A stretch of DNA of 64,000 bases from Clostridia bacterium (GTDB lineage: Bacteria; Bacillota; Clostridia; Christensenellales; Aristaeellaceae), in contig JAFSKN010000028.1 in the NCBI GenBank assembly GCA_017448975.1, forward strand, positions 2,035 to 66,034, read 5' to 3'. The notes below the pieces were generated by a model. The model had not been told where the DNA came from. It was given only the letters and a program-made list of their open reading frames with translations, and did not search any database. The position numbers and the translations under genes are program-made. Below, in pieces: positions 31,896 to 52,039 of this stretch. Position 1 is the first letter of the stretch. Each line of letters starts with the position of its first letter.

Positions 31896-31972
31896 CTGGG
31901 TGTAGCGCAGCTTGGTAGCGTGCTTGAATGGGGTTCAAGAGGCCGAGAGTTCAAATCTCTCCACCCAGACCA
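31896..31972 (+). tRNA. tRNA-Pro (anticodon GGG)
   Basis: Hand-folded cloverleaf of 77 nt. Acceptor CTGGGTG/CACCCAG, anticodon arm CTTGA-ATGGGGT-TCAAG, T-arm GAGAG-TTCAAAT-CTCTC, encoded CCA. Confidence 0.9.
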
Positions 31973-32032: not shown

Positions 32033-33169
32033 TTACAAAGACTGTATGAAAGACTCCATTTTTGAGGCACTGTCTTTCTGCATAGTCATAGTAACTGTTG
32101 CATAAACATCCATCGTGAATGCCACCGTTGCATGGCCGAGATTATTGGAAATCGTTTTGTAATCTACACCGTTTTGGATTGCCAAAGTAGCATAAGTATG
32201 CCGGAGATCATGCAGACGCACTTCCGGTAACCCCATCTTTTTCACAATGGATTTAAACCTGTTGAATACTGTTCGAGTTGCCAGATGGTGGCCGAACTCG
32301 TTTGTAAAGACAAAGTTTTCCTCATTGTGGTAGAGCGTTCCGTAATAGAGTTTCCACTCGGCTTGCTTAAGCTTCATCTTTTTCAGGGCTTTAACAACGC
32401 TGGGTGGTATAGAGAACGAGCGTTCCTGCTTATTCTTCAGCGTAGTGAAGGTGTAGGTTTTACTTTTACCGCGAAGCGCTTTGAACTGCCGATACAGATG
32501 GATCGTGCCTTTGTCTAAGTCCACACAGTCCCAAGTCAAGCCGATGAGTTCGGATTCCCTCATGCCGGTAAAGATCGCCACATAGTAGAATTCCTCAAAA
32601 GGATGCCCGTTGATGAGCCGAAGAAACTCAGGCACTTCGTTGTCCAGCAACGGGCGCATTTCCTTTTTCGGCGTCTCATACATAGGAATCTCCGCATCAG
32701 CACAGGGATTCTTTTTGACAAGGCCGTCTTTTTGCGCCCTGGTTATCGCCTTATTCAGAACAAGGTAGATATTCTTCAAAGACTTTTCGGACAATCCCTT
32801 TACATCTTTACAGCGCTTGAGGAAGCGCTGCACAGTAAGCAGCTTCAAGTCCTGGATTTGAATTTGTCCCAAATCAGGTTTGATGTGTACCCGGATATCC
32901 TGCATATATCGCTCAAGTGTGGAGCTTTTTACGCCTGATGTATAGCATTCTGCCCAGGTATCCATCCACTCACCCACGGTGATGTTGTTTTCATCCACCA
33001 AAGTCCCATTGGAATAGTCATTCTGTAATTCAGCTACTTTTTGCCGCACTTCACTTTTTGTTTTTCCATATACATTGAAACGCTTTTCATCAAGAACGAT
33101 ACGGCCTTCCCAGGAATTTGAAGTACGCTTTCTGAAGCTGCCCTCACCGTTTGCTCTTTTTGTTCCCAT
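32033..33169 (-). CDS. int: tyrosine-type site-specific integrase
   Basis: Start MGTKRANGEGS after GGAGG. C-terminal catalytic residues (..RLHDLRHTYAT.., LGHATVAFTMDVY). No TAG codons. GC lower than the flanks. Confidence 0.9.
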   Translation of the reverse strand: MGTKRANGEGSFRKRTSNSWEGRIVLDEKRFNVYGKTKSEVRQKVAELQNDYSNGTLVDENNITVGEWMDTWAECYTSGVKSSTLERYMQDIRVHIKPDLGQIQIQDLKLLTVQRFLKRCKDVKGLSEKSLKNIYLVLNKAITRAQKDGLVKKNPCADAEIPMYETPKKEMRPLLDNEVPEFLRLINGHPFEEFYYVAIFTGMRESELIGLTWDCVDLDKGTIHLYRQFKALRGKSKTYTFTTLKNKQERSFSIPPSVVKALKKMKLKQAEWKLYYGTLYHNEENFVFTNEFGHHLATRTVFNRFKSIVKKMGLPEVRLHDLRHTYATLAIQNGVDYKTISNNLGHATVAFTMDVYATVTMTMQKDSASKMESFIQSL

Positions 33170-33185: not shown

Positions 33186-33353
33186 TTAGAGTTGGCATTG
33201 TTCTTCCAGCCATCTGTGCAGCGCCTGAACGCTGACAATCGTTCTTTTCCCCAAGCGAAAAGCCGGGTAAAAACTCTTTTGACGTGTCAGGTTATACGCA
33301 GTTGCTCTGGAAATGTTCTACTGTTTCGCCTATTCTTCGACGGTTAGGGTCAT
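33186..33353 (-). CDS. excisionase-like HTH protein (read through 2 TAG codons)
   Basis: MTLTVEE[TAG]AKQ[TAG]NISRATAYNLTRQKSFYPAFRLGKRTIVSVQALHRWLEEQCQL. TAGs at 33330-33332 and 33318-33320. Classic Xis/AlpA-type HTH directly upstream of int. Confidence 0.7.
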
Positions 33354-33554: not shown

Positions 33555-34088
33555 TTACAAAGTTCTTTTCAAAATTTCTCTGTCCGTTTTCTTCAGCCAA
33601 GCTACCCCCACGGCAACAGCGTCACTCTCGTCGTTGGTGGCGTAATCCTGTTTTCCCACATACTGCTCCTATGCTGCGGCGACGTCTTCTTTGGTCGCTT
33701 TTCCCGATCCGGTCAGCAGCTTTTTCACGGTGGTCGGCGCGATTTCCTCAAACTGTGTTTTGCACATGCGCCAGGCAGCCAGGTCTGCGATGCCCACCAC
33801 CTTGAAAAGAGCCTGAGTTTCGTGCGGGAATCGGGAAAAGCCCTTTTCCCGTACGAACACCGCAACATCCGCGGAAAGTTCCGTGATCAGATCATAGATA
33901 GCCGCCAGAATTTCCCCGTGACAGAAATTCTGCCCGCGATGGTTCAGGTGACAGAGCCTTTCCACGGTGATTTTGCCGTTCTCATACCGCAAGACGGCAA
34001 AACCGGGACACCGCAAGGAGAGATCGGCGCAGAGGATGCGGAGAGAGTCTCCTTTTTTCAGCTCCTTATTGCTCATACGCCGTTTCAT
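33555..34088 (-). CDS. RuvC-like Holliday junction resolvase (1 in-frame TAG)
   Basis: ILCADLSLRCPGFAVL (catalytic Asp) .. VAAA[TAG 33669-33671]EQYVGKQDYATNDESDAVAVGVAWL. The start may instead be 34076. Confidence 0.7.
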
Positions 34089-34386
34089 AGGCGAACATGC
34101 CCCGCAGGATGGCGTGCGCCAGATGATCGTCTGTCTGATCTCCGGCCAAATAAGCGTACAGGTGCTGGATGGCGTGGTTTACATGCTCCTCGGTCGGGAT
34201 TTTCTTGTAGTTCCGATCCTGGAGAGACTCGTGATACTTTTCCGCGCCGTATTTGGCCGTTTCCGCCGCGGCAAACATGGCGTTGGGCGGCAGGAAGTGA
34301 AAGGCGTATGGCGTGGCAGACTGTGCGCCGCCTCTTTCGTTGACCACGGTGGGCGCGTCGGGCTGAACGCCGGTGATGATGGGCAT
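34066..34386 (-). CDS. dATP/dGTP pyrophosphohydrolase-domain (MazG-like) protein
   Basis: FLPPNAM..AKYGAEKY..HLYAYLAGD..DHLAHA pattern recalled from the phage dNTP pyrophosphohydrolase family. No TAG. Confidence 0.55.
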   Translation of the reverse strand: MPIITGVQPDAPTVVNERGGAQSATPYAFHFLPPNAMFAAAETAKYGAEKYHESLQDRNYKKIPTEEHVNHAIQHLYAYLAGDQTDDHLAHAILRGMFAYETAYEQ

Positions 34387-35042
34387 TATTCCGCCGCCTC
34401 CCCTCTCAGCAGGCTGTCAAAGCAAATCGCGCTCCAGGATTCCATGTGACCAGCTTTTCTGGCTTCCTGTAACTGCTTCACCGTGAACCAGTCGCCCATC
34501 AGCTTGTCTTTTTCCAGACAGGAAATATCCTCCCGATCAGTAGAAGTATGATAGATGAGGCCCAGATGAACGTGGTCAACCTCCGTCAGGGTGCTGGACA
34601 GAAAGCCGCACAGGGCAGCATCCGTGATTTCGTCCCGATGGAGTCCCACTTCTTCTTCCAGTTCCCGGTAAAGGGTGTCCAGAACGCTTTCTCCCTCGTC
34701 CATGTGTCCGCCCAGACCGATGCTGTTCTGGCCCAGCAGACGCTCATCCCCACCGATCCGGGTAGTCATGTAGATGCGGCCTGTAGGACGGTGCTCCACG
34801 ATCACATAGGGAATGACCTGCTTGAATTCCGGGTCAGATTCCGCTTTCCAGCGCGGCATAGCGGTCAAATGCTGTTCAATCACTTCCTGAAGCGCACAGT
34901 ACTCGTTTCCATCCTCGTCCGGCTCCAGGATTTTGGGATTGAAACCTTCTTCCTATAGCCCGTCCACCCATTTGGCTTCGATACCCATGATGACCGTGTC
35001 TCTGTATTTCGCTTTGTATTCGTCAGGCGTCATGTTCTTCTT
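34386..35042 (-). CDS. NUDIX hydrolase (1 in-frame TAG)
   Basis: Nudix box GLGGHMDEGESVLDTLYRELEEEVG. N-terminal extension MTPDEY..WVDGL[TAG 34953-34955]EEGFNP. Confidence 0.75.
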
Positions 35043-35511
35043 TCCTCCTCTGAAAATGCTCGGTTTCGTCGATCAGTTTTCCATGTTCTACCCGGTAAAA
35101 CCGCTGATTTGTCGTCCCGCTGTCCAGCCCGCCCAGGTTTTCATCATAGTGACCGATTTTCAGGTAATCCAGTAACGATAGGAACTGCTCAAACGACTGA
35201 ATGCTGTCGCAGCCGCTGTACAGGCAGGTTTTCTATCCAAATCCTCTGACGATTTCCAATGCCTGCCGCTATTCCGAGGGATTCTGACCTTCCCCCATGA
35301 AACACACGCAGGAGATAAGCCCTGCATACGTGCGGATCAATCCCGGCAGGGCTGGCAGCAGCAGTTCTCCCTTGTCCTCCCACAAATAGGGTGAATGGCA
35401 GCCGGAGCAGCGGAAGACGCAGTTGGAAACAGCGATCGTCAGGCTGACTTCCTTTGGCGCCTCCGCCAGCGTCACGGCGTATTCCATGTACCGCAGGGGT
35501 GTCTCAGTCAT
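35032..35511 (-). CDS. nrdG: anaerobic ribonucleotide reductase activating protein (2 in-frame TAGs)
   Basis: Radical-SAM-like Cys cluster (CVFRCSGCHSP), ..GEGQNPSE[TAG 35269-35271]RQALEIVRGFG[TAG 35233-35235]KTCLYSG..LDYLKIGHY..TNQRFY. Confidence 0.8.
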
Positions 35512-35749
35512 CCGGCCCCTCATAGCGGATATAACAGCCATCGCAAATGCGCTGCCCGTCCAGCGTGATGATGTGGCTGCCGGTGATCCAGCCGCCGCAG
35601 ATGGAGCAGGGATAAGCGTTGCGCAGGCTCACCCCGCCGCAGTAGGGACACATGCTGATTTTTTCGTAGGGCGGCGTGTCCAGCCCATGCTTTTCTTCCG
35701 CCTCTTGGGGCTGTTCAAATGTCCGCCCGCATTCCGTACAGATCAGCAT
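35504..35749 (-). CDS. zinc-ribbon protein, unknown function
   Basis: Four CxxC-type pairs (CTECG, CPYCG, CSICG, CDGC). Start MLICTEC 9 nt after GGAGGA. No TAG. Confidence 0.5.
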   Translation of the reverse strand: MLICTECGRTFEQPQEAEEKHGLDTPPYEKISMCPYCGGVSLRNAYPCSICGGWITGSHIITLDGQRICDGCYIRYEGPDD

Positions 35750-35940
35750 ACGGTCACATCCTCCGGCTATTCGATGTACTGCCCGCAGTCGCAGCCCTTC
35801 CCCTCCCGGAACGTCTGGCAGGGACATTTGTTTTCCGGGATGTGGCGCGGCTTGTTGGGACAGTAGCCGTTGTTCTGCCGGATGCGGCGTTTCAGATTCT
35901 TCAGAAACACCGTATCGGGATTCTTAATCACCCTGCCCAT
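35743..35940 (-). CDS. small Cys-rich protein, ferredoxin-thioredoxin-reductase-catalytic-like (tentative); TAG 8 codons before TGA
   Basis: YCPNKPRHIPENKCPCQTFREGKGCDC has CPC-x8-CxC spacing, as recalled for the FTR catalytic subunit. TAG at 35767-35769. Overlaps the nrdD 3' end. Confidence 0.4.
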
Positions 35941-37801
35941 GACTTGCCTCCAGACCCTTTGCGTAGTACCGCTGGTGTTCTTCCTCCTGCCGTGCCTCCG
36001 CGAACCGGGATACCAGCTTCAGATAGCCAATGACCCGCGTGGCGTAATCCAGGCTTCGGCTGTGACACTTGGGGCACTCGTCCAGGCGGTGCTTGCTGAT
36101 GTAGCCGCACTTTTTACAGAGGGTGTTGGGGATGTTGAAGGTCAGGTAATTGCAGCCGGTTCGGATGGCGGCCTTCAGCAGCAGGGCGTACTGTTCATTG
36201 GTCAGATGCTCGTCCAGGTTGATATGGCAGGCGGAACCGCCGTCCAGATATTTGGTAAATGCGCGGCCGTGCAGCTTTAATTTGTCCAGCACATTCACCT
36301 TGGGATCTTCTACCCGGAAGAAATAGCTGTTGTAGCAGTCCCGGAGCACGAACAGCTTGTCCGCCTTATCCCAGGCGGCATTTTTGACGCCCAAGGATTC
36401 CGCAGGTACGAGTTCGGTATTGAACAGGATGCCATCCTTCCGTGCCTTGCGGTTAGCCTCGTAGATCGGCTGCAATACCGCTTCGGCATAAGCGATATAC
36501 TGGGGACTGTCCGCGTCGATCTCGATGCCCAGGGCTTCCGCGCCTTCCAGGAAACCGTTGACGCCCACGGTCAGATACTGCTTCTCCGGGGAAACGAAGC
36601 CCGCGTCATAGACCGGCAGCAGGCCGGCGGCCTGACGCTCCTTCAGGATGGCGTTGAAGGCCAGCAGGTACTTGTGAACCTTCTCCACCATCTGCGTCAT
36701 GTCGTCCCGGACGTCCTGCAAGCTATTGTCCCAGACGGCGTTCTGCACCAAACGATTGACATTGATGGTCATGACGCACTTGCTGCCCGTGGCAACGCCG
36801 CCAGCGCCTAATGTGTAAGAAAAGGTATTGTCCGGCAGTTCATTTTTCTACCGACAGCACGATGCCAGCGAATCCACCGAATCGGAGCGGTACACGAAGA
36901 AGCTGTGTCCTTCCGCCCACATTTCCGCCACGAAGTCAGCCCATTCCTGATCCACGAAATCCTCGCCGTTGTCCAGCAGGTTCACCGTTTCCACCGGGAA
37001 GGTCAGCAGCTTGCGCTTCCGTTCCTGATTGAACCAGCGCATGAACCGCTTTTGAAGCCAGGACACCGATTCCCAGTGCATCTTGGTGCCATCCGGAAAG
37101 AAAAAACTCTCAAACATCCCATAGAAGTACGGCTGGTCAAAATAGGCGATATTCCAGAAGCAGGACTGATTTCCGCGGGCGGCAGCAGGCTGATTGATGG
37201 AATATACCACCTGCTCAAAGGCGTCGGTGATCACCTTATCCATGGTGCGGTGGCGAGTGGATAAATCTACGACCTCATCAGGGCGTTGGTAATAATCGTC
37301 ACCGTACTCCTTGCGGATGAAATAATCCATGTAGCTGAGGAACTCCGGTGTGGAAATGGCCCCGCAGAACTGGCTGGCCAGGGCGAATACCAGGTTGATG
37401 AACGCGCCGCAGAAGGAGGAAAGGTTCTTGGGCGCTTCGCTGGTGCCGCCGATACAGGTATTGCCATAGAACAGAAAGGGATACAGGGTCACGCTGGCAC
37501 AGTAGGGCTTGCCTAAAATACCTACTTCGTCGTGCCGATACAGTTCATGCTCCTCCAGCTGCCGCAGGTATTCCTCGGCGGTGTTGGTACCGTACATCTC
37601 CTGGAGCTTCCGGTACATTCCCAGGCGGTTGATGGCGACGGCGTCCGCCTTGTAGATTTCCGTTTCCAGGGTGGCGATGTTCTTGTTTTCCACGTTGGCA
37701 TTGGGATCGACCTCGCTGCCGGTGGCGGCATTGGATGCCTTTCCATAGCGGTCAATGAAGCTCTAATGCCGGCTGTGATCGGTATATTTGTCAATTCTCA
37801 T
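35924..37801 (-). CDS. nrdD: anaerobic ribonucleoside-triphosphate reductase (2 in-frame TAGs)
   Basis: 625 codons once ORFs 36848-37693 and 35924-36772 are joined: ..SLASCCR[TAG 36848-36850]KNELPDNTFSYTLGAGGVATGS.. Glycyl-radical C-terminus ATRVIGYL. N-terminal TAG at 37763-37765. Confidence 0.9.
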
Positions 37802-38432
37802 TTTGCCCATCCTTTCTGCTGTCCTCGATGGAAATGCCATCGAAAATAATCGGTATTCTTTCTTTGGCCTGCTCCAGCAGCAGCGCCATCTACGCCCGCA
37901 TTTCCGGGTAAGCCGCCGGATCGGTGCGGAGCGTGAAGATGTGCAGCCACTCCCGCAGGTTGGCCTTCATGATGATTCTTGTTGCGGTGGAATTGGGCTA
38001 CACCTTCCGGGCGTCCTCCGGCTTAATGCCGTGAGCCAGCATATCGTGATAAACCTTTTCCGCGTCCTCCATGCACTTCCGCCAAAGCCCGGAAGCCCAG
38101 GAGCCTTCCCGATAGAACAGGGGCCGCACAAAGGAAATCTCCCCGCTCATGTTCACATACCGCTGGCTTTCGATGCAGAAGCTGGCCAGCCTGTGCCGGG
38201 TAAGCTCCGCCATCACATCCCGGGACGTGATCTATTCCACCGTCATGCCTGCAAACTCCACAGGCGATAGATGGCCCCGTTTCAACAATGCTTCTACAAA
38301 ACGCGGCGCGCTGTCCTCGGTGATTTTGGCTTCCGAACGGTAACAGTTTCGGCCTGCCTGCTCAATCTGGCGCAGCGCCTGCATTCCGTCCTCCGGGGTG
38401 AGGATACGGGCAGATTGCTGAATGATCTTCAT
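37791..38432 (-). CDS. thyX: FAD-dependent thymidylate synthase ThyX (3 in-frame TAGs)
   Basis: RHRLASFCIESQRY ThyX motif. TAGs at 38232-38234, 37998-38000 (ARKV[TAG]PNSTAT) and 37890-37892. Confidence 0.85.
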
Positions 38433-38785
38433 TCCGCTTCCTCCGTTTCCGACGCTTCTTCTGCTTCAGTGCTCATGCTGGCCTCCTCATCCTATTTCGC
38501 TTCTGCCTCTGCTTCCGCTTCGGATGGCATATCGCCATTCAGCCGCGACATCATGGTGCGGTAGGTCAGCCCGCAGCCGATCACCGTGCCGCCGTCCAGC
38601 ACCAGCACGCTTTTCGTGGCCCGGCCAAAGGTCATATCTACAAACTGGCAGGGCTTGGCTTCCTTAGCCGCCCGGATCTATCGCCGGGCGCTGGCGGTCT
38701 GTGGATTGAGTACCATGGAAACCCGGTTGGCGCAGACCACATGGCCAAAGCCGGCATGGATAAACCGTAATGGGATCGTGTTCAT
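38429..38785 (-). CDS. RemA/DUF370-like protein with acidic tail (2 in-frame TAGs)
   Basis: IHAGFGHVVCANRVSMVLNPQTASARR[TAG 38678-38680]IRAAKEAKPCQFVDMTFGRATKSVLVLDGG matches the RemA pattern recalled from Bacillus. Second TAG at 38492-38494, before the Glu/Ala tail. Confidence 0.6.
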
Positions 38786-38823
38786 TTCTTGCCTCCTTCA
38801 TATTTTTCGCGCGGGAAGCGCGT

Positions 38824-38908
38824 TGGTAGGAGCAGCGGGATTTGAACCCGCACGCCGTAAGGCAAAGGTTTTAGAGACCTCCGCGTCTGCCAGTTCCGCC
38901 ATGCTCCC
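38824..38908 (-). tRNA. amber suppressor tRNA, anticodon CUA, on a tRNA-Leu (type II) scaffold
   Basis: Hand-folded, 85 nt. Acceptor GGGAGCA/TGCTCCT, D-arm TGGCGGAACTGGCAGACGC, anticodon arm GAGGT-CTCTAAA-ACCTT, long variable arm TGCCTTACGGCGT, T-arm GCGGG-TTCAAAT-CCCGC, discriminator A73, encoded CCA. Confidence 0.9.
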
Positions 38909-38944
38909 CCGGTTCAGCCAGAGATGGACCCTGGCTGACGCGGA

Positions 38945-41900
38945 TCACGGGATCAGCTCATAATCTGTGATCCACAGGTCGAACATATCGGAACGGGGAC
39001 GCGCCTTGCCGTCGATAAACTGATACGCGGGCCGCCGATCCCAGGAAATCAGGCGGAGGATGGCTCCCTCCGCAATGGGCTTTGCCTGGAACAGCGCCTT
39101 TTTGAGCTTCATGACGCCCGTGTGTCCCGTGGACAGGCTGCACAGCTTCACCTTGGGGCTGTAGCGCTCGTCCACCTCCAGCACGGCGTACTCGCTTTTC
39201 AATTTCGGGAACAGGGAGACCGGAGTACCGCAGTGGTCGATCTCAAACCGCGCCTGCTCATGGGGCGGAATGGTTTCCTCCGGCAAACTTCTCTCGATTC
39301 CGCGAAGAACGCGCAGCCGCGCTTCCCGGGTCTTAGGGATATGGGCTTTGGAGAAGTGCGATTCCCCTTCCCGGAATTCCCGGTACATCTTCTATAGCTT
39401 TCCGTTCCCGCCGAACTCCCGGAAGTAATCCAGCCGGATGAGAATTTCGATCACCTGGGAATCCAGGGCGGGATGCAGCTCCATATCGTACAGCAGATCG
39501 GTAAAGCAGGCATAGAAGCCATCGCGCATGGCGTACAGCGCCTCGGCCGCCTTGCGGCTGATGTGCTTTACCGACGTCTATGCGTCGGAAATCGTCCGGG
39601 CTTCATGGTCGATGTAAAAATCCCGGTTATCCTGCCTGAATTTGCAGGGAACGATGCGGATGCCGAAGCCCTTCCGCATTTCTTCCTTGGCAAGGGATAT
39701 GCGGTCTTTGTCTCCCTTGGCGGCATAGCCGGAGAGCAGGGTGGTGTAGTATTCCAGGGGATGATGGGCTTTCAGCCATGCGCCGTAGAGGCTGTCCAGG
39801 GCGACGCAGACGGCATGGCTGGAATTATATAAATAGCTGGTCGCGTCCTCTATGATCCTCCAGACCCTCTCAGCGGCCTCCGGATCGCTCTTGGCCGCAA
39901 AACCCTCCAGAAATCGCTGCTTCAGGGGCAGCACCTTTTCCGGGTGCTTTTTCCCAATGGCCTTGATGGCCGCATAGGATTCCGGCGCAGAAAACCCGGC
40001 GTGCTGAAGCGTTTTCATCAGCTGCTCCTGAAACAGGATGAAGCTGGACGACATTTCCCGGGTCTGGATCAGGGTGTCGAAGGCCGGAATGCCGTAATCA
40101 AAGTGCTTCCGGGCCAGAAAGATGGGCAGCATGGATTTGAAGGCAGGACGTACCGCCGCCACAAAGGCAGCCAGCTCCGTAATGTTTTTCGGCTTGTACT
40201 GCATCACCTTTTCCCGCGTTTTTGGCTGCTCCACCTGGTTCAGCCCCATAGTCAGTCCTTCCGCGTACATACGCCACGTCTCCTTATCCTGGGCTGTGAG
40301 CCGCAAAAGCTCGTTCACATCCGGCTGCTCCATCCCAATGCGTTTGAAAGCTTCGTTATTGGTTTTCACCACTTCCACCAGAAGCAGGTCATTCTTTAGA
40401 TATCCGAACTGCTCCGCCGTCGCGCCGTCGATGAAGGCAGCGTAGACCGTCTTTTTCCTGGTTCCCTTGCTGTTGATGCGGATGATCCCGATTTCCCTGC
40501 GGATGTCCTCCCTGCACAGCAGATAGGCGCAGGGATGCGGGGAAATGGAGTCGATCACGCCCATGTACTGCTCGCTGGCGGCGGCCAATTCCCGGTATTC
40601 CTCCGGGATATAGTCGGAAAGGGCGATTTCCTCGTCGTCCTCCGCATATTTGACCGCTGATTCGTAGGCTTTCAGCTTGTCCCCGATGCTGTTGGCGATA
40701 TCGAAGGAAAGATTGGAAGCCCGGCAGTACATTTTCCAGGCGGAAAGCCGCTTCAGGGTGCCATAGGCGATCATAGGAGCGCTGCGCCACTCTCCTAAAA
40801 CCTCTGCCTGGGCTTCCTCAAAGGCTTCCCGGTTGGCTACGTTCATGTCGATATCCGGCAGGCTGCCGGACAGGATTCTGTCCGCCGAAATGAACCGATC
40901 CGGGAACATTTCCACAGGGATGGCGAAGCGGTCAATGGAGGACAGGCCCAGCAGGGAGTTGGTGTAGTAGCTGGGTGCGCTGCCGCGTCCCGTTTTGGTG
41001 ATGATGCCGCCTTTTTCTACGGAGCGGCGCACCAACTCGTGATCCAGTAGGAAATAATCGCTCATGCCGGTGGAGGTGACCACATCCGTTTCGTATTTCA
41101 CACCTTTCGCACGGACACTCTTTTCTTCCTTCGTCATACCAGCGGTTTGCTGTTCAAAAGCGGCGTTCACCAGATCGAGATACTTATGATTCCGTTCCTC
41201 CTGTGTCAGTTCAGGATAGATGGTGGGCAGCTTTTTGCTCTTGTCGAATTCCACATCCTCGAATGATTCAAAGATGCGGGTATTCTCCATGGCCTCCCGG
41301 ATTTGCGCGTCGGAAAGAACGCCCTGCCGCTGAAAGCGCTGAAACGCTTCCGCGCCGGAGGGATAATCCATATACCAGCCGCCTTCGTCCTCGTAGAGAA
41401 TGTGGTTGGCTTCCAGCCGCTGCTGCCGAAGGGTGGCGTCCCGCGGATGGATATAATGACTGTCGGTTCCCATGATGAGGGGAATGCCGTGTTTCCTGTA
41501 CAGGCCCAGCAAGAATTGGTTGACCTCTCGCTGCTTGTCCGTGTCGTGATACTGCACTTCCTACATGAAGCTGTCCCGAAAGTGCTTTGCGAAACGGAGG
41601 ATCAGGCGTTCCGCCTCCTCCCAGCCGTACTTGAACACCCCGGCAATGCAGGCCGTGGTCACAAACACATCCTGCGGGTCAAGGGCCAAAAGCAAATCCA
41701 GATCGACACGGGGGCGGTAATAGTACCCGCTGATGTTGGCTTCGGAGAGGGCGAAATTCAGGTCGCCGACACCCTTCCGCGTTTTAGCGGCCAGGATGAT
41801 GTGACAGTTGGCGTTATCCTTTTCCCGCCTGTCCTTCACGAAATAGGCTTCGCTCACATACCGCCACCGCAGGCCGTATTTCTTCGCCAGCTCGGAGCAC

Positions 41901-42109
41901 TGCCAGTAATTGCCCTGGGTGCCGTGCTCGCAGGAGGAAAGAATGGTATGCCCCAATTCTACGGCGCGCTTAACGTAATCTTCGTTGGTCACCACGCTGT
42001 CGGTCAGCATCACGTTGCTGTAACAGGAATGCCGGTGATAGCAGGCGTAGGGAATTTCCTTTTCTTCTGACGCTGCGGACAGAGGGACGGGCTTTTCCTA
42101 AAGTGTCAT
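38945..42109 (-). CDS. dnaE: DNA polymerase III alpha subunit (4 in-frame TAGs)
   Basis: 1054 codons once three ORF fragments are joined. PHP domain (YHRHSCYSN..), ..RDSFM[TAG 41561-41563]EVQYHDTD.., pol core, ..TISDA[TAG 39578-39580]TSVKH.., ..GNGKL[TAG 39392-39394]KMYREF. A TAG at codon 4 (42098-42100) applies if the ATG at 42109 behind AAAGGAG is the start. Confidence 0.9.
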
Positions 42110-42115
42110 AACGGA

Positions 42116-42889
42116 TTACTCCTTTATCCCGGAATGAATGATTTCTTCGCCCACAGGACAATGCAGGCGGGTGGAGCAGATGAAACGGCAGAAATAGCCG
42201 GAGGAAGAAACCAACCAATCTTTTTCTTCTTTTATCGCTCGGATCGTCTGATCGATCCAGTCCATGGTTTCATCGTACCGGTCCATGGAAAAGGGCTCGT
42301 CGATGAATGTACCGTAGCGGAACATATTGAACCGCAGCATGGATGGGTATTCTCCGAACCGTTCCTTCACATACGCGGCGTAAGTGTATAGCTGCCGGGT
42401 ATTGGCGAACAGCTCCTTTTTCATGGACTGCATGGACTTGGATTTGTGGTCGATGACGATGATGCCGCCATCACGCCTGTCCCTCAGTACCAGATCAGCG
42501 ATGCCCACAAAGGGATTGCCACGGATATCCAGTTCAAACCTTTCCTCCACGGACAGGATTTCCATATCCTCCCCAAAGCCGTCGAAGGACAGGAAATACT
42601 GCTTCCCTTCCTCAAAGTATTTTCCGGCCAAGCCCCGGGGAAAGGGCGGAAAGTAATGCCTGACCGCCTCGTCGTACTCCGCTTCATACCTGTCCGCCAG
42701 TTCAAAGGACAAGAGCTCCCCTTTTGCCCAGCGCTCCAACAGGCTGTGGCAATGCGAACCGTACTCCGCGTAAGCGTTTTGCTCCTGGGGAACATGATCA
42801 ATGTATTGCAGCTTGAACGCCAAAGAACATTGATCAAATAGCTGCTACTTGCTGAATGACCATTTCATGTCATGCGGTATATCACACAT
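42116..42889 (-). CDS. PD-(D/E)XK nuclease, Cas4/RecB-like with 4-Cys cluster (1 in-frame TAG)
   Basis: MCDIPHDMKWSFSK[TAG 42845-42847]QLFDQCSLAFKLQYI.., IADLV..VIDHKSK, C-terminal CRFICSTRLHC. Confidence 0.75.
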
Positions 42890-42899
42890 ACTACCTCCG

Positions 42900-44690
42900 T
42901 TAAAAGGGATGCGCCGCCTCCGCCATCTGCACTGCGTATTCCGGCAGGCTGTCCGCCCGGGGATTCGGTGGTGTGACGCCCTCCCTGTTCCACGAGAATG
43001 TATTCCTGTCGCCCTTGTCCGCCTGATAGATCCTGCGGCTGTCCGGGCAATAGCAGCACTCGATCAGCCTGCACACGCCGCCTTCCCGGTTTTTCAGCAC
43101 CCGCAGGTTGGGACGCTCCACGACGATGGCGCTGTCCGCCTATCGGATGGTGGCGCTGCTGCCGCCGATGTCATCCTGGCCCAGCTTTTCGCCCTGCTTC
43201 ACCTTGCGGGGATGGGCCACCAGCAGCACATGGACGTGATACCGTGTGGCGAACTTTTTGAGGGCGTTGGCGAACTTGCCCTGGGCTTTTGTTTCCTCGT
43301 CCGAATCGGACAAAGCGGTCATCAGGTTGTCCGCCAGGAACAGCTTGCAGCCGTACCGCCGCGCCGCCATCTGGAAAACCTTCAGGATGCTTTCCGATTG
43401 GTTCACTTCAAAGATTTCCTGGTTGTCAAAGAGATAGAATTTGTCCCGATAGTAATCCATCTACCGTTCCTGCACGGCATACGGCACGGTGGGCACTTTG
43501 ATGCCGCGCACCGGGTCATACCGAAGCCCAATGTATTCCGAACCCGCAGCCTGGAGATTGATCCACTCCTGGAATTTCTCTTTGGTCAGTTCTCCGCTGT
43601 AGGCGCAGACGGAATATCCTTGTTCGATAGCGGTGAGCAGCAGTTGACCGGATAAGACGCTTTTTCCTGCCCCTGGCCGGCCTGTGAATACCGTCATTGC
43701 CCCTTCCGCCTATCCGCCAATCAATTCATCCAGCGCCGGGATCATGGTTTTGATTCGTGGAACGGTGGTAGGATCGTAAGGAACCACATCCGACTACTGA
43801 ATGATTCCCTTGACAGGCACCGGCTGAGCGGCGTCCAAGGTCTCCTGAAGCGTTTCCGGCCCATAATAGAACAGGATTTCGTTGGCGTCCTTGCAGGGTG
43901 TGCCGTCCGGTTTGTCTGGGTATTCCTCCACCACCATACACCGTGCTTCATCCAGCCGCCGCACAGCCTCCCGCACCATTTTTCTGCCCGGCTCGTCGCT
44001 GTCCCCGAACAGGATGATCGTCTGAAACTTCTCCAGCCAGTCCCAGCAATGGTCGATCCAATCCAGATTGGTGCAGCCGCAGGGAACGGACACCGCGTTG
44101 CGGATTCCCACCTCATACAGGGAGAGCGTGTCGATCTGGCCTTCCGTGATGATCAGGGGCTGGGAGAAGGAGCATAAATCCATGCCGAACAGAATGGGCC
44201 GGGTGTTGGAAGCCTGCCACTCCTTTTTCTCCTTGGGCTGGGGCTTGCGCGGCGCCCGGTATTTCACATATTCCTATGTTCCGTCCCGGAAGAAAGGAAA
44301 AACAATGTTGCCCTTTTCATCCGCCCCCAGCCGGAAGGTTTCCAGCGTCGCTTTTGATATCTTCCGTTTCTCAAAGTACAGGATGATTTCTTCTGTCAGC
44401 GGCTTTAGTTCCACATCCGGGAGCGCAAACTGTTTTCTTGGGGAGGCGGCGGGACGGAGAAGCTCCGCCCGCTCGCCAAAGTGTTCCGCCAGGGTCTCGA
44501 ACCGTCCCTTGACCCCGCATCCGCCACGCTTGCACACATACACGCCATCCCGCAGGTTCAGTGCGAAGGTGTACCGGTCATGGCTGTCGCCGCCGTGACA
44601 GAAGGGGCAGTAATCCGGGATGAGCTCGTCCCCGCGCAGCCGGTATGGGGTCAGGTGCGCCGCGGCGAACCTCAGAATGTCAGCCTGCAC
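42900..44690 (-). CDS. bifunctional primase-helicase, T7 gp4-like (5 in-frame TAGs)
   Basis: Zn finger CPFCHGG..CKRGGCG, TOPRIM (ITEGQIDTLS, FGDSDEPG), and helicase Walker A LDELIGG[TAG]AEGAMTVFTGRPGAGKS. TAGs at 44274-76, 43794-96, 43710-12, 43461-63 and 43140-42. Confidence 0.85.
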
Positions 44691-45234
44691 AGGGACACGC
44701 CTCCGAACAGCATTGATAGCGCCGTCCCATTTGAAAAATGCGGCGGGATATCTGGCTTTCGCTCAAGCCCACGGCCTGGCTGATTTCCTTCTAAGAGCAG
44801 CCATCCAGCCGCATAACAAGGATTTCGCAATCTTGGCCGGATAAATCATGCAAGAAACGTTCCGTGTCCACGTCGCCGATCACCTGATCCTCCATCTGCA
44901 CCGCTTCATGCTGCACGGCTGGTACATCCAGGGACAGAATGAACACCTTCCTGATTTCTACCCGGAATCTGCGCTGTGGAATGCTCACGGCCGCCATCCT
45001 GCGCACATACTCTCCCAGGGCGTGGATAACGGCATAATAGCAGTTTTCCGCTTCCTCCAGGGTATCGGCGGCACGGAGCAGGAGCAGCAGCGCCTACCGC
45101 GCTTCCTGGCGTAGATCCTCCGTATTGTCGGGATACCGCCTGCCCGCTTTTTGCTGATACCGGCGCACGAGCCTTTGAATATCCCTCTCATGCTCCTTCA
45201 GGAATTGGGCTTCCTGTTCCATTGTCATGTTCAT
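44680..45234 (-). CDS. sigma-70 family (ECF/phage-type) sigma factor (2 in-frame TAGs)
   Basis: Region-2-like EDLRQEAR[TAG 45094-45096]ALLLL and region-4 HTH LSGQDCEILVMRLDGCS[TAG 44791-44793]KEISQAVGLSESQISRRI. Confidence 0.55.
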
Positions 45235-45247
45235 GCGCTCCCTCCTG

Positions 45248-45613
45248 TCAAATGGGCAGATCGTCTTCGGGTGGGGCGGGCGGAGCAGCCTGCGTCTTTT
45301 GCGCCGGAAGCTCCATGTCCGTGATACTCACCTGAACGGAGGTACGCTCCACACCGTTTTTGTCCAGATAGGGACGGATGACCAGATCGCCCACCACGGT
45401 GATCTTATCGCCCTTGTGCAGGTACTGCATGGCGATCTCGGACAGCCGGCGCCAGGCGCTGCACCGATAGAAATTGGTGATGTATTCGCCCTTGGCGTCC
45501 TTAGTGCGGGTATCCGCCGCCTATGTGAAGGATGCGCAGGGAACGTCGCTCACCTGGGAAAGAACAGGATCAGCCGTCAGACGCCCTGCGGCAGTCAGTT
45601 TGTTTACGCTCAT
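45248..45613 (-). CDS. ssb: single-stranded DNA-binding protein (1 in-frame TAG)
   Basis: OB-fold N-terminus MSVNKLTAAGRLTADPVLSQVSDVPCASFT[TAG 45521-45523]AADTR.. and an acidic tail ..PPEDDLPI. ATGA overlap with the upstream gene. Confidence 0.8.
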
Positions 45614-46641
45614 GCTTCAGCCCCCTTGAATTCGTCATAAATCGCCTGGAGAACCCTTTCGTCAACGATTGCCCGGTAATTGGCGGTGCCGCCGGTAATG
45701 GCCCGCATCCGCTGGGCGATCTTCTCCCTTTCCTCCTGGGTAATATCCGTGCAGCAGGCTTTCATCACCGCGTCCACCTTTTCAGCCAGGGTCCGGGTAT
45801 CCTCCTCTGAAGAAGGCGGTTCAGGGTTCGATTCAGACGGCTCCTTGTTTTGTTGCTTCACTTGCGGCTTTTCCGCCGACGGCGCAGGCGCGTTCTTGTC
45901 CGCGTCGCCCAGCCAGCCCGCGATTTTCGCGCCGGTGTCCGGGGTGATCACGAAATACTGGCCGTCGAACAGGCCGGTACGATCCTTGGTGGCGGCTGCG
46001 GAATGATCCTGGGCCAGCTCAAAGAACACGCTGAACTCGTACTCCAGCCCTTCTCGGAAAATAGGTGCCATACCCACCTTGCGGGGCGCTTTCTTGCCCT
46101 GCCCGTTGTCCTCGATGACGTACTCCGTCTTGGTGCGCAGGGTAGCCGCCACGTGCATGGGGCATTGCAGGATCTTGTCCACCAGCTTATTGTGCAGCGG
46201 GGTCACATCCCGCCAGGCGGTATAGCCGTTGCCGCTGCGTTTGGCGATGTTGGCCTGCATATCCAGCAAGCCGCCCTCGCCGGACCAGGCGTGGGACAGG
46301 GAGTCGATGATCAGGAACTCCACCCCCGCGTCCTCCGCCGCTTCGATGGCTTCCAGATACCTGGCTGCGCTGAACGGCGCTTCCAGGGCGATGGCCAGGT
46401 ATTCTCCGATCCGGGTACCGCCCACCACAGTGCCCACATATAGGCTGCCGGAGCCGTTCTCCGTGTCGATGACGCAGATTTTCTCCCATACCGCCTCATT
46501 GGAGATGCCGGGATGCACCGCCCGAACCTACCCGAAGCCCATGAGCAGGGTGCTCTACGTTTTCCCGCTGCCGGAGCTTCCCGCCACGCCGATCTTGAGG
46601 CGCGCCATCTGCCGTTTCGCTTTGACGATTTGAATAGCCAT
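45610..46641 (-). CDS. RecA-like AAA ATPase (Sak4-type recombination protein) (2 in-frame TAGs)
   Basis: Start after GGAGGG. Walker A GSSGSGKT[TAG 46555-46557]STLLMGFG[TAG 46528-46530]V.., Walker B FLIIDSLS. Confidence 0.7.
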
Positions 46642-46852
46642 TTTCAATCCCTCCATTCATTTTGGCCTTCATAATATAAGAGATGCAATTTTCGCGATTT
46701 CTTGCATCGCCGGCCAAAAATATTTTTTGCACACTCACCGTGAGTCTGCATCTGATGGGCCCCATTATAACAAAGGCGGAAATCCGCCGCAATGTGGAAC
46801 TTTTTTCGCGGAGGAAGTGAAAGTGTCATATGGTAAGCATTTCTTCTCAACG

Positions 46853-46888
46853 AAAAAAAGCCCCGCCCCACAGCTTGTGGAGCGGGAT
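46853..46888 (-). terminator. rho-independent terminator after the hydrolase gene
   Basis: On the minus strand, an ATCCCGCTCCACA/TGTGGGGCGGGGC stem followed by TTTTTTT. Confidence 0.6.
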
Positions 46889-46917
46889 GTAGCTTTCCAA
46901 GAGATCATAAATCTCTT

Positions 46918-47886
46918 TTACCTCACCGGCATATACCGCTCAAGATACGTTTCGATGGCTTCCATCCACTGTCTGTTCACCGTGTCGTCGTTTTGCAGTC
47001 CATGCCCGGAATGGGGCAACTCAAAGTACTGAAAATCCACATTGTTTTCTTCCAGCGCTGCTTTCAGGCGCAGAGAACCAAGATAGGGCTGAACCTTATC
47101 GCAGGTTCCATAAGCGACAACGGAGGGAACAGGATTGCTGCTGACCCATTCCGCGGCAGCAATGGGCTTGACCTTTTCCAGATACGTTTTATCCTGAATC
47201 TCCTGTGCCGTGATTTCAACGCCCGCCATGACGCTGAACATCCCAGCGCAGGCTTCATCGTTCTGATCCAGCCCGTAAATGCCCCAATCTTCCTGATAGA
47301 AGCAGGAGGGACCGACCGCCCCGAACGTCAGGACAACAGGGACAGGCGCTTGGGCGCCGTCACGATAGGTGTAAATCATGGCAAGGCAATGTCCTGCTGA
47401 ACCGCCTGCCATGGTCAGCTTATCAATGTGATACCCGGCCTTTTCAGCTTCCTCGATCACAATTGGAATAGCCGCTTTTATCTCGTTGGACTGAGAAAGG
47501 ACGCTGGCGCTGTTGACATCTGTCCGTAAGGTGTAGTTGATACCGGCGGCCACATAGCCCTTACTGCACAGCCAGGAAAGCATCTCTTTGTCGCCTGCCT
47601 TGTCCCCGGAAGTAAAACCACCAGCATGAAGATAAACCACCAGTCCGTAGCTGGCATGTGTATTGTCCTTCGGCAGATACAAGTCAAACTTGTTCGCTGC
47701 CCCTTCGCCGTAATCAAGATCGGTTTTCCGTGTTCCGATCTCGTCGCTCCACTGGATAGCGTACTGCTTTGCCCAGGCAGGTTTGATGAAGACTTTCGAG
47801 GCTGCTCCGACAATAACAGCCAGAATAAAAACCAGAATTCCCAGCCAAATGGGCACGGCTTTCACCTTCTTCTCTCTTTTGCTCAC
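46918..47886 (-). CDS. alpha/beta hydrolase (esterase/lipase type) with N-terminal TM anchor
   Basis: HGGG-like YLHAGGFTSGD and nucleophile elbow AGGSAGH. Lower GC than neighbours. Confidence 0.75.
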   Translation of the reverse strand: MSKREKKVKAVPIWLGILVFILAVIVGAASKVFIKPAWAKQYAIQWSDEIGTRKTDLDYGEGAANKFDLYLPKDNTHASYGLVVYLHAGGFTSGDKAGDKEMLSWLCSKGYVAAGINYTLRTDVNSASVLSQSNEIKAAIPIVIEEAEKAGYHIDKLTMAGGSAGHCLAMIYTYRDGAQAPVPVVLTFGAVGPSCFYQEDWGIYGLDQNDEACAGMFSVMAGVEITAQEIQDKTYLEKVKPIAAAEWVSSNPVPSVVAYGTCDKVQPYLGSLRLKAALEENNVDFQYFELPHSGHGLQNDDTVNRQWMEAIETYLERYMPVR

Positions 47887-48146
47887 AGGAAATTCCCTCC
47901 AAACAGCATACCGCCCAGCAGCATATTCATGAAAGCCCTGACCGCCAACCGTCCGAGAACAAATCCGATAACGACCAGCGCCGCGATTACAATGATTCGT
48001 TTTGCCTCAATTGACATTTTGCACTCTCCTCCCATTTGATTCTTGACAGATTCAGCACTGTGTGCTATTCTTGATTTGCTAAAACATTTGTTTTAGCGAT
48101 AATGATTGTATCAGCAAGTGGCGCTGTTGTCAATGGGAGGAGCAAA

Positions 48147-48683
48147 ATGGAACAAAAACGCAAAACTGTATCACCGTTCAGCAATGAAGCCAGGAACGCC
48201 TATGTGGTAGAACATATTACGGATTCACTATTGACAAGACTGAAAGAAAAGCCGCTGGCGGATATTGCCATCAGCGAGCTTTGCGATGCGGCGGGGGTCG
48301 GCAGAACGTCCTTTTACCGCAACTTTGAATCCAGAGAGGATATTGTTAGAAAATATATTCGCGGGCTCCTGAACGGCTGGAAGCACAATTGGGATGCCAC
48401 GGGCGAAGAATCTAACGCTAAAATGTACGGAAGCCTGTTTCAGTATTTGAAGGAGAATGCGGATTTATTTCTCATGCTAAAGACACGCGGCTTGATGTAC
48501 CTTTTCCTCGAAGTCTTTATGGAAATCTGGGGGCCAAGGCCGGAATATGAAAACATTTGGGCCTATACTACAGCCTTCATCGCCTATGGAACCTATGGCT
48601 GGATTGAGGAATGGATCAATCGTGGTATGCAGGAATCCGCTGAGACGATGTCGGAGATGCTTTTTTCGCATGGTATGAAGTAA
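48147..48683 (+). CDS. TetR family transcriptional regulator
   Basis: HTH ISELCDAAGVGRTSFYRNFESRED. Start 7 nt after GGGAGGAG. Confidence 0.8.
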   Translation: MEQKRKTVSPFSNEARNAYVVEHITDSLLTRLKEKPLADIAISELCDAAGVGRTSFYRNFESREDIVRKYIRGLLNGWKHNWDATGEESNAKMYGSLFQYLKENADLFLMLKTRGLMYLFLEVFMEIWGPRPEYENIWAYTTAFIAYGTYGWIEEWINRGMQESAETMSEMLFSHGMK

Positions 48684-48786
48684 AATATATCGTTGTTAAA
48701 CCGCAAATATGAAATACATTTTCCTTGTAATTCCTATATGCTTTATGTATAATGGACGTGGAAGAATAATGGGAGGTTGACGTTCG

Positions 48787-49245
48787 ATGCCGAAAAAGAA
48801 AATCACTACGATCAAAGAGCTTCGCGCCGCGCAGAAGCTGTCTCAGGCTGCCTTCGCAAAAACGATAGGCGTAAGCACAGCCTCCGTAACCGCCTATGAA
48901 GCAGGCCGGGTGAATCCCAGCGAGAAGGTTCTGGAAAAGATCAGAGAAGTCTATAACGTGGATTTGTCTCCCAAGCCAGTAAAGAAAGCGAAAGCGGCAA
49001 AGCCTGCCGCAGAAAAGCTCAAGGCACCCAAGGCAAAACGCGCAGGCAAGGCAAAGGCCGAAAAGAGCGCGCCTGCGCAATCAGAAAAGACTGAAATCAT
49101 CATCCAGTCTCCGATGGGCGGAACCATTACGCCGGAGGAAATCATCGCCAGGATCGGGGCTGCCGATAAGATTTATATCCGCGTGGACGAGAACAAAGCC
49201 TATTGGGTAAAGGGCGAGGAGACCGGCAGTATTGATCTGTGGTAA
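48787..49245 (+). CDS. XRE-type HTH protein with Lys/Ala-rich (histone H1-like) linker
   Basis: HTH LSQAAFAKTIGVSTASVTAYEAG, then KPVKKAKAAKPAAEKLKAPKAKRAGKAKAEK and a small C-terminal domain. Confidence 0.65.
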   Translation: MPKKKITTIKELRAAQKLSQAAFAKTIGVSTASVTAYEAGRVNPSEKVLEKIREVYNVDLSPKPVKKAKAAKPAAEKLKAPKAKRAGKAKAEKSAPAQSEKTEIIIQSPMGGTITPEEIIARIGAADKIYIRVDENKAYWVKGEETGSIDLW

Positions 49246-49283
49246 GTAAAAAAACAAAAGAAAAAACAGAAAGGGGCATCACC

Positions 49284-49562
49284 ATGAACAAGCGCGAACT
49301 CATCGAAACAGTATCCTCCAAAGCGGAAATCACAAAGAAAGAAGCTGATGCGGTCGTCAATGCGACCCTGGACGCGATCATTGAAGGACTTGCCTCCGAA
49401 GGCAAGGTGATCATCCCCGGCTTCGGTTCCTTTGAAGTGCGGAACAAGACCGCCCGTGAGGCCCGCAATCCCCGTACTGGCGAAAAGATCAAAATTGCCG
49501 CGAAGAGAGCGCCTGCGTTCAAGCCCGGCAAAGCGATGAAAGACGCCGTGGAAAAGAAATAA
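49284..49562 (+). CDS. hup: HU family DNA-binding protein
   Basis: MNKRELIETVS.., ..FGSFEVRNKTAREARNPRTGEKIKIAAKRAPAFKPGKA. Confidence 0.9.
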   Translation: MNKRELIETVSSKAEITKKEADAVVNATLDAIIEGLASEGKVIIPGFGSFEVRNKTAREARNPRTGEKIKIAAKRAPAFKPGKAMKDAVEKK

Positions 49563-49577
49563 GGAGCGGGCATAGGA

Positions 49578-50129: not shown

Positions 50130-50195
50130 CATATTTCGGTTAATCAAAGGGCTGCCGCAGAAAAAAACATCTGCGGCGGTTCGTTCATTTCCCAC

Positions 50196-51337: not shown

Positions 51338-51347
51338 CCCTCCTGCG

Positions 51348-51962: not shown

Positions 51963-52039
51963 ACTGCCTCCTTTGCGCGAAAAAAGCGGCTCCCGTGATC
52001 GAGAGCCGCCTGTGCGGTGTGTGTCTGCAAAAGGAGCCG

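Follow-up and report, generated by a model that had tools for sequence, protein, structure and literature searches.

A leucine-type amber suppressor tRNA inside the TAG-containing replication operon of a temperate Clostridia phage, and its possible part in gating lytic genes

Introduction

Which amino acid is inserted when the replication genes of a phage carry in-frame TAG codons and a tRNA gene with the matching anticodon lies among them, and what might such an arrangement be for? The question is raised by a stretch of 64,000 nucleotides from a Clostridia bacterium (Aristaeellaceae; GenBank assembly GCA_017448975.1, contig JAFSKN010000028.1, positions 2,035 to 66,034 of the forward strand), referred to here as the window, which holds host genes and, beside a host tRNA-Pro gene, an integrated temperate tailed phage. 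On its minus strand, between dnaE and a remA-like gene, the phage encodes a tRNA with anticodon CUA. In the following, we argue from the tRNA itself, from the codons that replace TAG in relatives, and from distant homologues that the amino acid is leucine.

Phages and prophages that are TAG-recoded (“code 15”) and have suppressor tRNAs while living in hosts with the standard code have been described before, among them crAss-like, Garnet and Topaz phages and phAss-1 (Borges et al., preprint 10.1101/2021.08.26.457843; PMC9523058; PMC10607447), and their recoding has been modelled as a lysis/lysogeny gate (Borges et al., 10.1101/2021.08.26.457843). A survey of 180 phage suppressors lists Gln, Trp, Ile and Tyr isotypes only (PMC10879173).

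Results

The tRNA gene and its identity elements

38824–38908, minus strand: tRNA-Leu-type amber suppressor, anticodon CUA, class II, 13-nt variable region, A73, encoded CCA (ARAGORN, Rfam RF00005, D-arm comparison)

A sequence-only reading of the window had proposed an 85-nt type II cloverleaf with anticodon CUA between dnaE and the remA-like gene, to be checked with a tRNA predictor on the minus strand. Both programs that we used agree with it: ARAGORN places a tRNA of 85 nt at exactly 38824–38908 (−) with anticodon cta at position 35, and the same interval scores 54.4 bits against Rfam RF00005 (gathering score 29; E = 6e-9), spanning the full model (1–71) with a long variable-arm insertion. 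All of the arms listed in that reading are present: an acceptor GGGAGCA/TGCTCCT with G1:U72, a D-stem GCG/CGC, an anticodon stem GAGGT/ACCTT with loop CUCUAAA, a variable arm GCC-TTAC-GGC, a T-arm GCGGG-TTCAAAT-CCCGC, A73, and an encoded CCA. The anticodon CUA occupies positions 34–36 within the 7-nt loop C-U-C-U-A-A-A, with U33 and a purine at 37, and is the same in every copy. The gene begins 36 nt downstream of the dnaE stop and ends 38 nt upstream of the remA-like start, all on one strand, and is one of only two tRNAs that ARAGORN reports in the window, the other being tRNA-Pro(GGG) at 31896–31972 (+). The name “tRNA-Pyl” in the ARAGORN output is the default of the program for any CUA anticodon. 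Folded by minimum free energy alone, the sequence does not form a cloverleaf, as is common among unmodified tRNA sequences and no argument against two independent detectors; the structure thus rests on the covariance-model score and the family alignment.

The leucine identity elements defined in E. coli (PMC9976931) are all found in this tRNA, that is, A73, U8:A14, A15:U48, G18G19, A20a, U54:A58, U55 and C56, with the D-loop numbered by hand. A73 is followed by CCA in all copies. Since a ranking by whole-tRNA identity is skewed by the way the loci were selected, we compared the D-arm and the discriminator in its place. The D-arm UGGCGGAACUGGCAGACGCG is identical to those of phage tRNA-Leu genes at 18/20 and 16/20 positions, the 18/20 match being to a phage tRNA-Leu(UAG), as against at most 15/20 for tRNA-Ser (which has G73) and 12–13/20 for tRNA-Tyr. 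The annotated phage tRNAs matched by blastn are tRNA-Leu in five out of five cases; blast of the tRNA against E. coli gave no match. By its long variable arm, A73 and Leu-like D-arm, then, we classify the CUA tRNA as being of leucine type.

The gene is conserved in place. The slot between dnaE and remA is filled by this tRNA in each of the five further related loci extending that far, as well as in L003, a locus of the viral relative described below, and in the metagenome contigs L061, L065 and L068. The alignment contains one compensatory change (C:G to U:A in the T-stem) and three wobble changes, among them A:U to G:U within the anticodon stem and, in the stem of the variable arm, C:G to U:G, so that every stem substitution stays paired; the only indel is confined to the variable loop, and the anticodon loop, A73 and CCA are invariant. 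Over 23 pairs, 69/69 cells are paired compared with 45–59% in slid controls, a covariation support that is modest because there are only three distinct sequences. The pair at the top of the acceptor (window 38908/38828) is G1:U72 in the window, in L065 and in the L023–L029 group, and G:C in L003, L061 and L068.

We found neither a sigma-70-type promoter nor an intrinsic terminator on the tRNA strand between 38300 and 39400, and a search of the flanks of the tRNA for known ribozymes or other RNA families returned none. The spacer on the dnaE side does contain a stable hairpin:

38909–38943, minus strand: hairpin in the dnaE–tRNA spacer, core 38914–38938, no U-tract (ΔG −20.9 kcal/mol, z −4.3)

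It ends 1–5 nt ahead of the tRNA 5′ end. In L003 and L065 a hairpin with another stem sequence keeps the pairing, and the L024 lineage is without it. Speculatively, the hairpin could shield the 3′ end of the dnaE mRNA after cleavage by RNase P.

TAG is confined to particular gene sets, and the TAG-bearing genes are not pseudogenes

The replication and nucleotide-metabolism module contains 28 in-frame TAG codons in 13 of its 15 genes and no in-frame TAA or TGA. The 29 codons counted earlier are reached when a doubtful open reading frame (ORF) of 65 aa is included. We compared the module with the relative IMGVR_UViG_3300028833_005988 (80,003 bp), which was traversed via the loci L003, L031, L032, L034, L046, L047 and L048, and with host and early genes. 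The fraction of leucine positions taken by TAG, as TAG/(Leu + TAG), is as follows.

Replication module (window): 28/393 (7.1%)
Virion module (relative, L048): 30/267 (11.2%)
Host genes (n = 25): 0/860, with 61 expected at the phage rate
Integrase and early genes: 0/373

At the rate of the module, TAG would be missing altogether from the host genes with a probability of 2e-28, and from the integrase and early genes with one of 1e-12. Only 1 of 31 early phage genes uses TAG as its stop.

Standard-code gene calling fragments the TAG-bearing genes in every one of the public assemblies that we examined. Read with TAG as sense, however, the ORFs are full length with respect to their homologues: NrdD in comparison with PDB 4coi, the primase-helicase with 100% coverage and DnaE with 94–98%. 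Downstream of the first TAG, the ratio of nonsynonymous to synonymous substitution rates (dN/dS) is 0.09 against L003 (3,179 codons) and 0.12 against the more distant L024, and 19 of the 25 TAG sites in the alignment of the window with L003 are shared by the two. Because selection downstream of the TAGs is strongly purifying, we judge from these comparisons that the TAG-bearing genes are not pseudogenes, as the sequence-only reading had also argued. In the distant relatives L023–L030, which already have the tRNA, TAG is scarce (one in the primase-helicase vs. 5–8, and one in DnaE vs. 4–5); TAG therefore appears to be spreading in this lineage.

The codons that replace TAG are mainly leucine codons

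Six of the aligned TAG sites differ between the window and L003, and at five of them the partner is a Leu codon (TTG three times, CTG and CTT once each), the sixth being CAG. A census over nine related loci extends this to 36 columns with TAG in at least one genome. The alternatives at these columns are Leu codons in 32 of 42 cases, with all six types represented; the others encode Ile (2), Met (2), Glu (2), Arg (1), Gln (1), Ala (1) and Asn (1). Tyr codons are never seen at the 36 columns, even though TAT and TAC are one step from TAG. A similar pairwise census on unrelated phages with Ser-type CUA tRNAs gave no Leu signal (mixed partners, few sites); the census therefore does not yield leucine by default.

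Distant homologues without recoding tell the same story. At the five TAG columns of the primase-helicase, 120 homologues have Leu in 120/120, 118/120 and 116/120 cases, I/L/V, and N/L, so that three columns are 97–100% Leu against a background Leu frequency of 7.8%, and Gln is never found in any of the five. In solved structures, Leu lies opposite TAG331 of NrdD (ASCCR-L, PDB 4coi), and Leu or Met opposite TAG145 of ThyX (AR-V-L-PN).

Codon exchange, distant homologues and the features of the tRNA are three independent lines, and they agree in pointing to TAG as a leucine codon, the sequence-only reading having left the amino acid unnamed. We regard it as highly probable that the tRNA is a functional amber suppressor that would insert leucine at the TAG codons of the phage. 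The element does not belong with code 15 in the sense of TAG = Gln read by a Gln-type suppressor: Gln makes up 1/42 of the clade alternatives and none of the residues in the homologue columns, and the tRNA is of class II.

The element is a temperate tailed phage

The integrase gene adjoins tRNA-Pro, and the 80,003-bp relative, 84–87% identical to the window, is collinear with 34979–46695 at 84% nucleotide identity. In the relative, the recoded replication operon is accompanied by about 30 kb of small TAG-free early genes, a 20-kb low-GC (guanine–cytosine), TAG-free cargo island, and a virion module with in-frame TAG in the genes of the large terminase (8) and portal (6) and in capsid-region and tail genes. 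The element is thus a temperate tailed phage integrated beside the host tRNA-Pro, in line with the mobility that the sequence-only reading had assigned to it; its phrase “recoded operon” holds for the operon and is too narrow for the phage, the virion module of the relative being recoded too. An integrative and conjugative element or a satellite, considered on account of an ArdC-like gene and of about 50 kb free of virion genes, was rejected in view of the terminase, portal and capsid module of the relative.

Numerous independent assemblies of metagenomes contain the lysogen on contigs as long as 212 kb, and the order host gene, integrase, module is unchanged in them; every contig with the neighbouring host gene also has the prophage, and there is no empty integration site among them. 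For the att site, we found no repeats of the tRNA-Pro region and no direct repeats across 31.5–52.5 kb. Judged by analogy with the relative, some 46 kb of prophage, with its right end and virion module, would lie beyond the right window edge. The window's own copy, when extended by 10 kb (L043), has further small same-strand genes. Among phages, tblastn with DnaE matched 405 records, the closest being Tsamsa-like Bacillus phages at 41% identity.

Several other observations concern the gene content of this copy and its relatives. The cargo island of the relative, at about 14.4–34 kb (L034, L046, L047), has a GC content of 35–45% and no in-frame TAG, and encodes an insertion sequence (IS) transposase, sigma factors of the extracytoplasmic function type, and secreted proteins with peptidoglycan-binding domains. 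At 419–2470 of L043, about 8–10 kb right of the window end, a DUF2958 gene is followed by a reverse transcriptase (RVT_1), which could be part of a retron, a diversity-generating retroelement or a group II intron remnant. A DNA-methylase gene downstream of thyX in L026 (9652–10614) has Hint and LAGLIDADG domains, which suggests an intein or a homing endonuclease, and the primase-helicase homologues P0053 and P0069 (>900 aa) have LAGLIDADG (PF14528) among their Pfam domains.

Gene map of the window

Bases 1 to 31.8 kb hold host genes of about 58% GC with zero in-frame TAG. From there on, the map reads as follows.

31896–31972, plus strand: host tRNA-Pro(GGG), left prophage edge (ARAGORN, Rfam; GC falls just right of the gene)
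32033–33169, minus strand: tyrosine integrase, no TAG (Pfam PF00589, PF14659)
33186–33353, minus strand: excisionase-like HTH_17 protein, 2 TAG (PF12728, E 5e-13, with TAG read as L)
33555–34088, minus strand: RuvC-like resolvase, 1 TAG (PF02075)
34066–34386, minus strand: dATP/dGTP diphosphohydrolase-like protein, 0 TAG (PF18909)
34386–35033, minus strand: Nudix hydrolase, 1 TAG (PF00293)
35023–35541, minus strand: NrdG-like radical-SAM activase, 2 TAG (CxxxCxxC motif only, no Pfam match; TAG columns are Leu codons in relatives)
35924–37840, minus strand: anaerobic ribonucleotide reductase NrdD, 2 TAG (PDB 4coi, E 1.5e-70)
37791–38432, minus strand: ThyX, 3 TAG (PF02511, E 2e-48)
38429–38785, minus strand: RemA-like protein, 2 TAG (PF04025, E 2.6e-15)
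38945–42109, minus strand: phage DnaE (Pol III alpha), 4 in-frame TAG (TAG-sense ORF; TAG columns CTG/TTG in relatives); the TAG at codon 4 may precede the true start
42116–42889, minus strand: PD-(D/E)XK nuclease-like protein, 1 TAG (L023 orthologue matches PF12705)
42900–44690, minus strand: primase-helicase (Toprim + DnaB_C), 5 TAG (2,746 homologues)
44680–45234, minus strand: sigma-70 region-4 protein, 2 TAG (PF08281 at 24.6 bits, below the curated cut-off of 25.7, and PF04545, both weak)
45248–45613, minus strand: SSB, 1 TAG (orthologue matches PF00436)
45610–46656, minus strand: AAA_24 ATPase at the head of the recoded block, codons 34 and 43 being TAG (orthologue PF13479; TAG columns CTC/CTG in relatives)
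46700–48700, no strand assigned: two inserted genes without TAG, judged by eye only to be esterase-like and TetR-like (the L003 alignment skips from 46695 to 48708)
48708–64000, minus strand: TAG-free phage early region, running past the window edge (Pfam and PHROGs; collinear with L031 and L043)

The sequence of the excisionase-like gene is identical across all lysogen copies. Within the minus-strand recoded block (33.2–46.7 kb), a Zn-ribbon ORF is listed between the NrdG-like gene and NrdD. The 2-kb insertion, which lies between the AAA ATPase gene and the phage helix–turn–helix (HTH) regulator, is missing in the free-phage relative L003, and other relatives have other cargo at this spot: arsenic/thioredoxin-type genes, DarT-Macro, or IS66. 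The early region contains the HTH regulator, a XerC-like recombinase, GP88, an ArdC-like protein, and proteins of 721 and 810 aa without an assigned function.

Discussion

A proposed mechanism

A single anticodon change, A35 to U, in a tRNA-Leu(CAA) is the probable origin of this tRNA. The leucyl-tRNA synthetase (LeuRS) of the host does not read the anticodon, so the tRNA would be charged with leucine and, once charged, would decode UAG as Leu in competition with release factor 1 (RF1). Its targets would be the roughly 7% of Leu codons that are TAG in the replication and nucleotide module and the roughly 11% in the virion module of the relative, with the integrase, early and cargo genes left free of TAG. 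Because no promoter or terminator of its own was detected and the two spacers measure only 36 and 38 nt, the tRNA is most likely co-transcribed with the operon, from which RNase P and 3′ trimming would free it. The synthesis of full-length lytic proteins would then depend steeply on operon transcription, having to wait until that transcription is strong and the tRNA has built up. Such a layout would amount to a coherent feed-forward “leak dampener”, keeping replication, excision and virion genes silent in the lysogen. We put this gating role forward tentatively, as a possibility that falls somewhat short of probable.

A number of points weigh against this picture or parts of it. Two of the five primase-helicase TAG columns are not dominated by Leu in distant homologues (N/L and I/L/V), and 10 of the 42 clade alternatives are not Leu; these fit ordinary amino-acid turnover, and exclusive insertion of Leu is not thereby proven. 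Most copies of the tRNA have a wobble, G1:U72, at the top of the acceptor stem. No TAG stop was found among the 25 flanking host genes of at least 150 aa (14 end in TGA and 11 in TAA), a sample too small to judge whether the host uses TAG as a stop; TAG may be rare in the host, and an amber suppressor would then cost it less. The promoter scan covers sigma-70-type sites only, while the phage has a sigma-like protein of its own. We also count the competition with RF1 as a weak point of the mechanism. As to gating in particular, the tRNA is preceded, in the direction of transcription, by five TAG-bearing genes, a chicken-and-egg layout, and a tRNA that shares its operon with its targets would also be produced to some extent by leaky transcription.

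Other explanations

Both the literature and gene callers take insertion of glutamine as the default, as is assumed for the crAss-like, Garnet and Topaz phages, and one primase-helicase TAG column (374) is indeed CAG in all relatives. Bacterial tRNA-Gln is, however, of class I, and GlnRS recognises it by its anticodon and a weak 1:72 pair, whereas the tRNA here is of class II with a Leu-type D-arm and A73; together with the single Gln among 42 alternatives and its absence from the 600 residues of the five primase-helicase columns, this makes glutamine extremely improbable. Tyrosine has slightly more to recommend it, a supF-like suppressor being a single change (GUA to CUA) away from tRNA-Tyr, which in bacteria is also of class II with a long variable arm and A73. 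TyrRS, moreover, tolerates C34 in the classical supF suppressor. Yet the D-arm agrees with tRNA-Tyr at only 12–13 of 20 positions as compared with 16–18 for tRNA-Leu, the annotated blast matches are all tRNA-Leu, TAT and TAC never replace TAG in the 36 columns, and no Tyr appears in the homologue columns, so that we consider this, too, very unlikely. For serine it may be said that SerRS ignores the anticodon and that many other viral contigs have Ser-type long-arm CUA tRNAs, and for pyrrolysine that ARAGORN prints that label. Serine identity requires G73 in place of the A73 found, and no Ser codon replaces TAG. In tRNA-Pyl the variable loop is 3 nt long, the anticodon stem has 6 bp, and the D-loop is tiny and lacks G18G19, in contrast to the 13-nt variable arm, 5-bp anticodon stem, G18G19 and TTCAAAT T-loop seen here. 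No pyl genes were matched among the window proteins scanned against Pfam and PHROGs, a scan of the window that was not exhaustive. Serine or pyrrolysine is therefore as improbable as glutamine.

A different kind of objection is that the prophage is decaying, its TAGs being nonsense mutations and its tRNA a mutated copy that is irrelevant or non-functional. The fragmentation of the genes by standard-code callers in every public assembly would be expected of decay, but the sole stop codon that breaks the reading frames is TAG, with TAA and TGA never found in them, and the TAG-sense ORFs cover their homologues from end to end. The dN/dS of 0.09 after the first TAG, the 19 of 25 aligned TAG sites held in common at 84% nucleotide identity, the conservation of the tRNA with a compensatory change, and the missing TAGs in early genes (P ~1e-12) all speak against it, and we give it hardly any weight. 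The most serious competitor accepts leucine and disputes only the gate: recoding could have arisen by neutral drift (TTG to TAG and the like), or could serve to block expression in the wrong cell or by competitors, without any regulatory role. The number of TAGs does rise along the lineage, from 1 to 5–8 in the primase-helicase and from 1 to 4–5 in DnaE, with the tRNA already present in the TAG-poor group, and TAGs sit at ordinary Leu positions. What drift does not explain are the 0/373 TAGs in the integrase and early genes and the rarity of TAG as a stop (1/31), an exclusion that points to selection tied to the timing of expression. We hold a role-free recoding to be unlikely, if far from negligible. 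Taking the leucine reading and the gate together, we lean slightly towards an unrecognised natural phage code, TAG = Leu, in a widespread temperate lineage of about 75–80 kb from animal-gut metagenomes, with a tRNA-Leu changed from CAA to CUA, a reassignment in progress that spares the early and lysogeny genes, and a feed-forward lytic gate.

Relation to known systems

With the code-15 phages, the element has in common a phage-encoded tRNA(CUA), in-frame TAG in conserved and virion genes, a TAG-free integrase, flanking host genes without in-frame TAG, and a proposed lytic gating. It differs in using Leu and not Gln, with a class II Leu-type tRNA; in that recoding is as heavy in the replication and nucleotide module and in the excisionase-like gene as in the late genes; and in that the tRNA lies inside the recoded operon and not in a standard-code “code-change” cassette or a tRNA array. 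Also in contrast to code-15 phages, no ribozyme, release-factor gene or aminoacyl-tRNA synthetase gene was seen in the phage parts examined.

Another close parallel is the E. coli suppressor supP (Su+6), the leuX tRNA-Leu with CAA changed to CUA, which inserts Leu at TAG (PMC7969014). Both have a Leu tRNA body, the anticodon CUA in the loop context CU-CUA-AA, and a LeuRS that ignores the anticodon; supP, however, is a laboratory mutation of a chromosomal host gene on which the genome does not depend, whereas the phage tRNA is natural and conserved, and dozens of essential codons would rely on it. A synthetic “leak dampener” has been built on supP, a feed-forward circuit that suppresses leaky expression, in which the number of TAGs tunes the leak, with an optimum of 2–3 TAGs per gene in an RF1-containing strain (PMC7969014). 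There, as probably in the phage with its 1–5 TAGs per gene, one promoter serves both the Leu suppressor and genes with Leu codons changed to TAG. The circuit is man-made, relies on a ribozyme for its 5′ processing and has been put to experimental test; the arrangement in the phage is a natural one, whose logic we infer from the layout.

The chlorophycean and Scenedesmus mitochondrial codes are NCBI tables 16 and 22. In these, as in chytrid mitochondria and in phyllopharyngean ciliates, UAG is read as Leu by a tRNA-Leu(CUA) (PMC6551751, PMC6131824, PMC11687900). Such codes are genome-wide, unlike the present one, which concerns part of a virus genome whose host never uses TAG as sense in the flanking genes. 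The likeness to tRNA-Pyl ends with the CUA anticodon, the architecture being different (long variable arm, normal D- and T-loops, 5-bp anticodon stem).

Suppressor tRNAs of other kinds were also encountered. The IMG/VR contigs L001, L005, L006, L007, L011 and L013–L017 have a long-arm tRNA(CUA) with a Ser-type body, a GGCAGAGTGGTT D-arm and, where CCA is encoded, G73; a further Ser-type long-arm tRNA(CUA) lies in a bacterial genome, that of Anaerovibrio slackiae (L019; NZ_VUNR01000005.1, 4517–4604). These genes often adjoin a tRNA-Ser(UGA), and the contigs may represent TAG-to-Ser phages. Other Leu-type tRNA(CUA) genes, with unrelated acceptor stems, are found at 189–275 of L063 (OUNJ010000014.1), 2403–2491 of L057 (Ga0182024_10008382) and 346–434 of L069. 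The one in L063 adjoins prs, ctc and ychF-like housekeeping genes and thus apparently belongs to a bacterial chromosome; both L057 and L063 look chromosomal and have no clear recoding nearby.

The strategy itself is known; new here are the different amino acid and tRNA class, a tRNA that lies inside a recoded replication operon, and the visible growth of the reassignment within one lineage. In the literature searched, mostly without subscription journals, we found no report of TAG = Leu in phages or bacteria, which is not proof of priority; the UAG = Leu codes met there are limited to ciliates and to algal and chytrid mitochondria.

Implications

For annotation, pipelines that apply code 15 (Prodigal-type callers, IMG/VR, geNomad-style) give Gln and would thus place the wrong residue at about 7–11% of Leu positions in recoded genes, including sites in the catalytic motifs CCRL of NrdD and ARxxLP of ThyX. 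A natural Leu amber suppressor from Bacillota-type phages could also serve as a tool in such hosts. The parallel between the layout of the operon and a synthetic leak-suppressing circuit makes the idea of recoding as a lysis/lysogeny gate directly testable. More generally, synthetases that ignore the anticodon (Leu, Ser, Ala) can seed new codes, and the Ser-type CUA tRNAs hint at a third variant. For the phage lineage itself, relatives with few and with many TAGs would offer a rare, stepwise view of codon capture.

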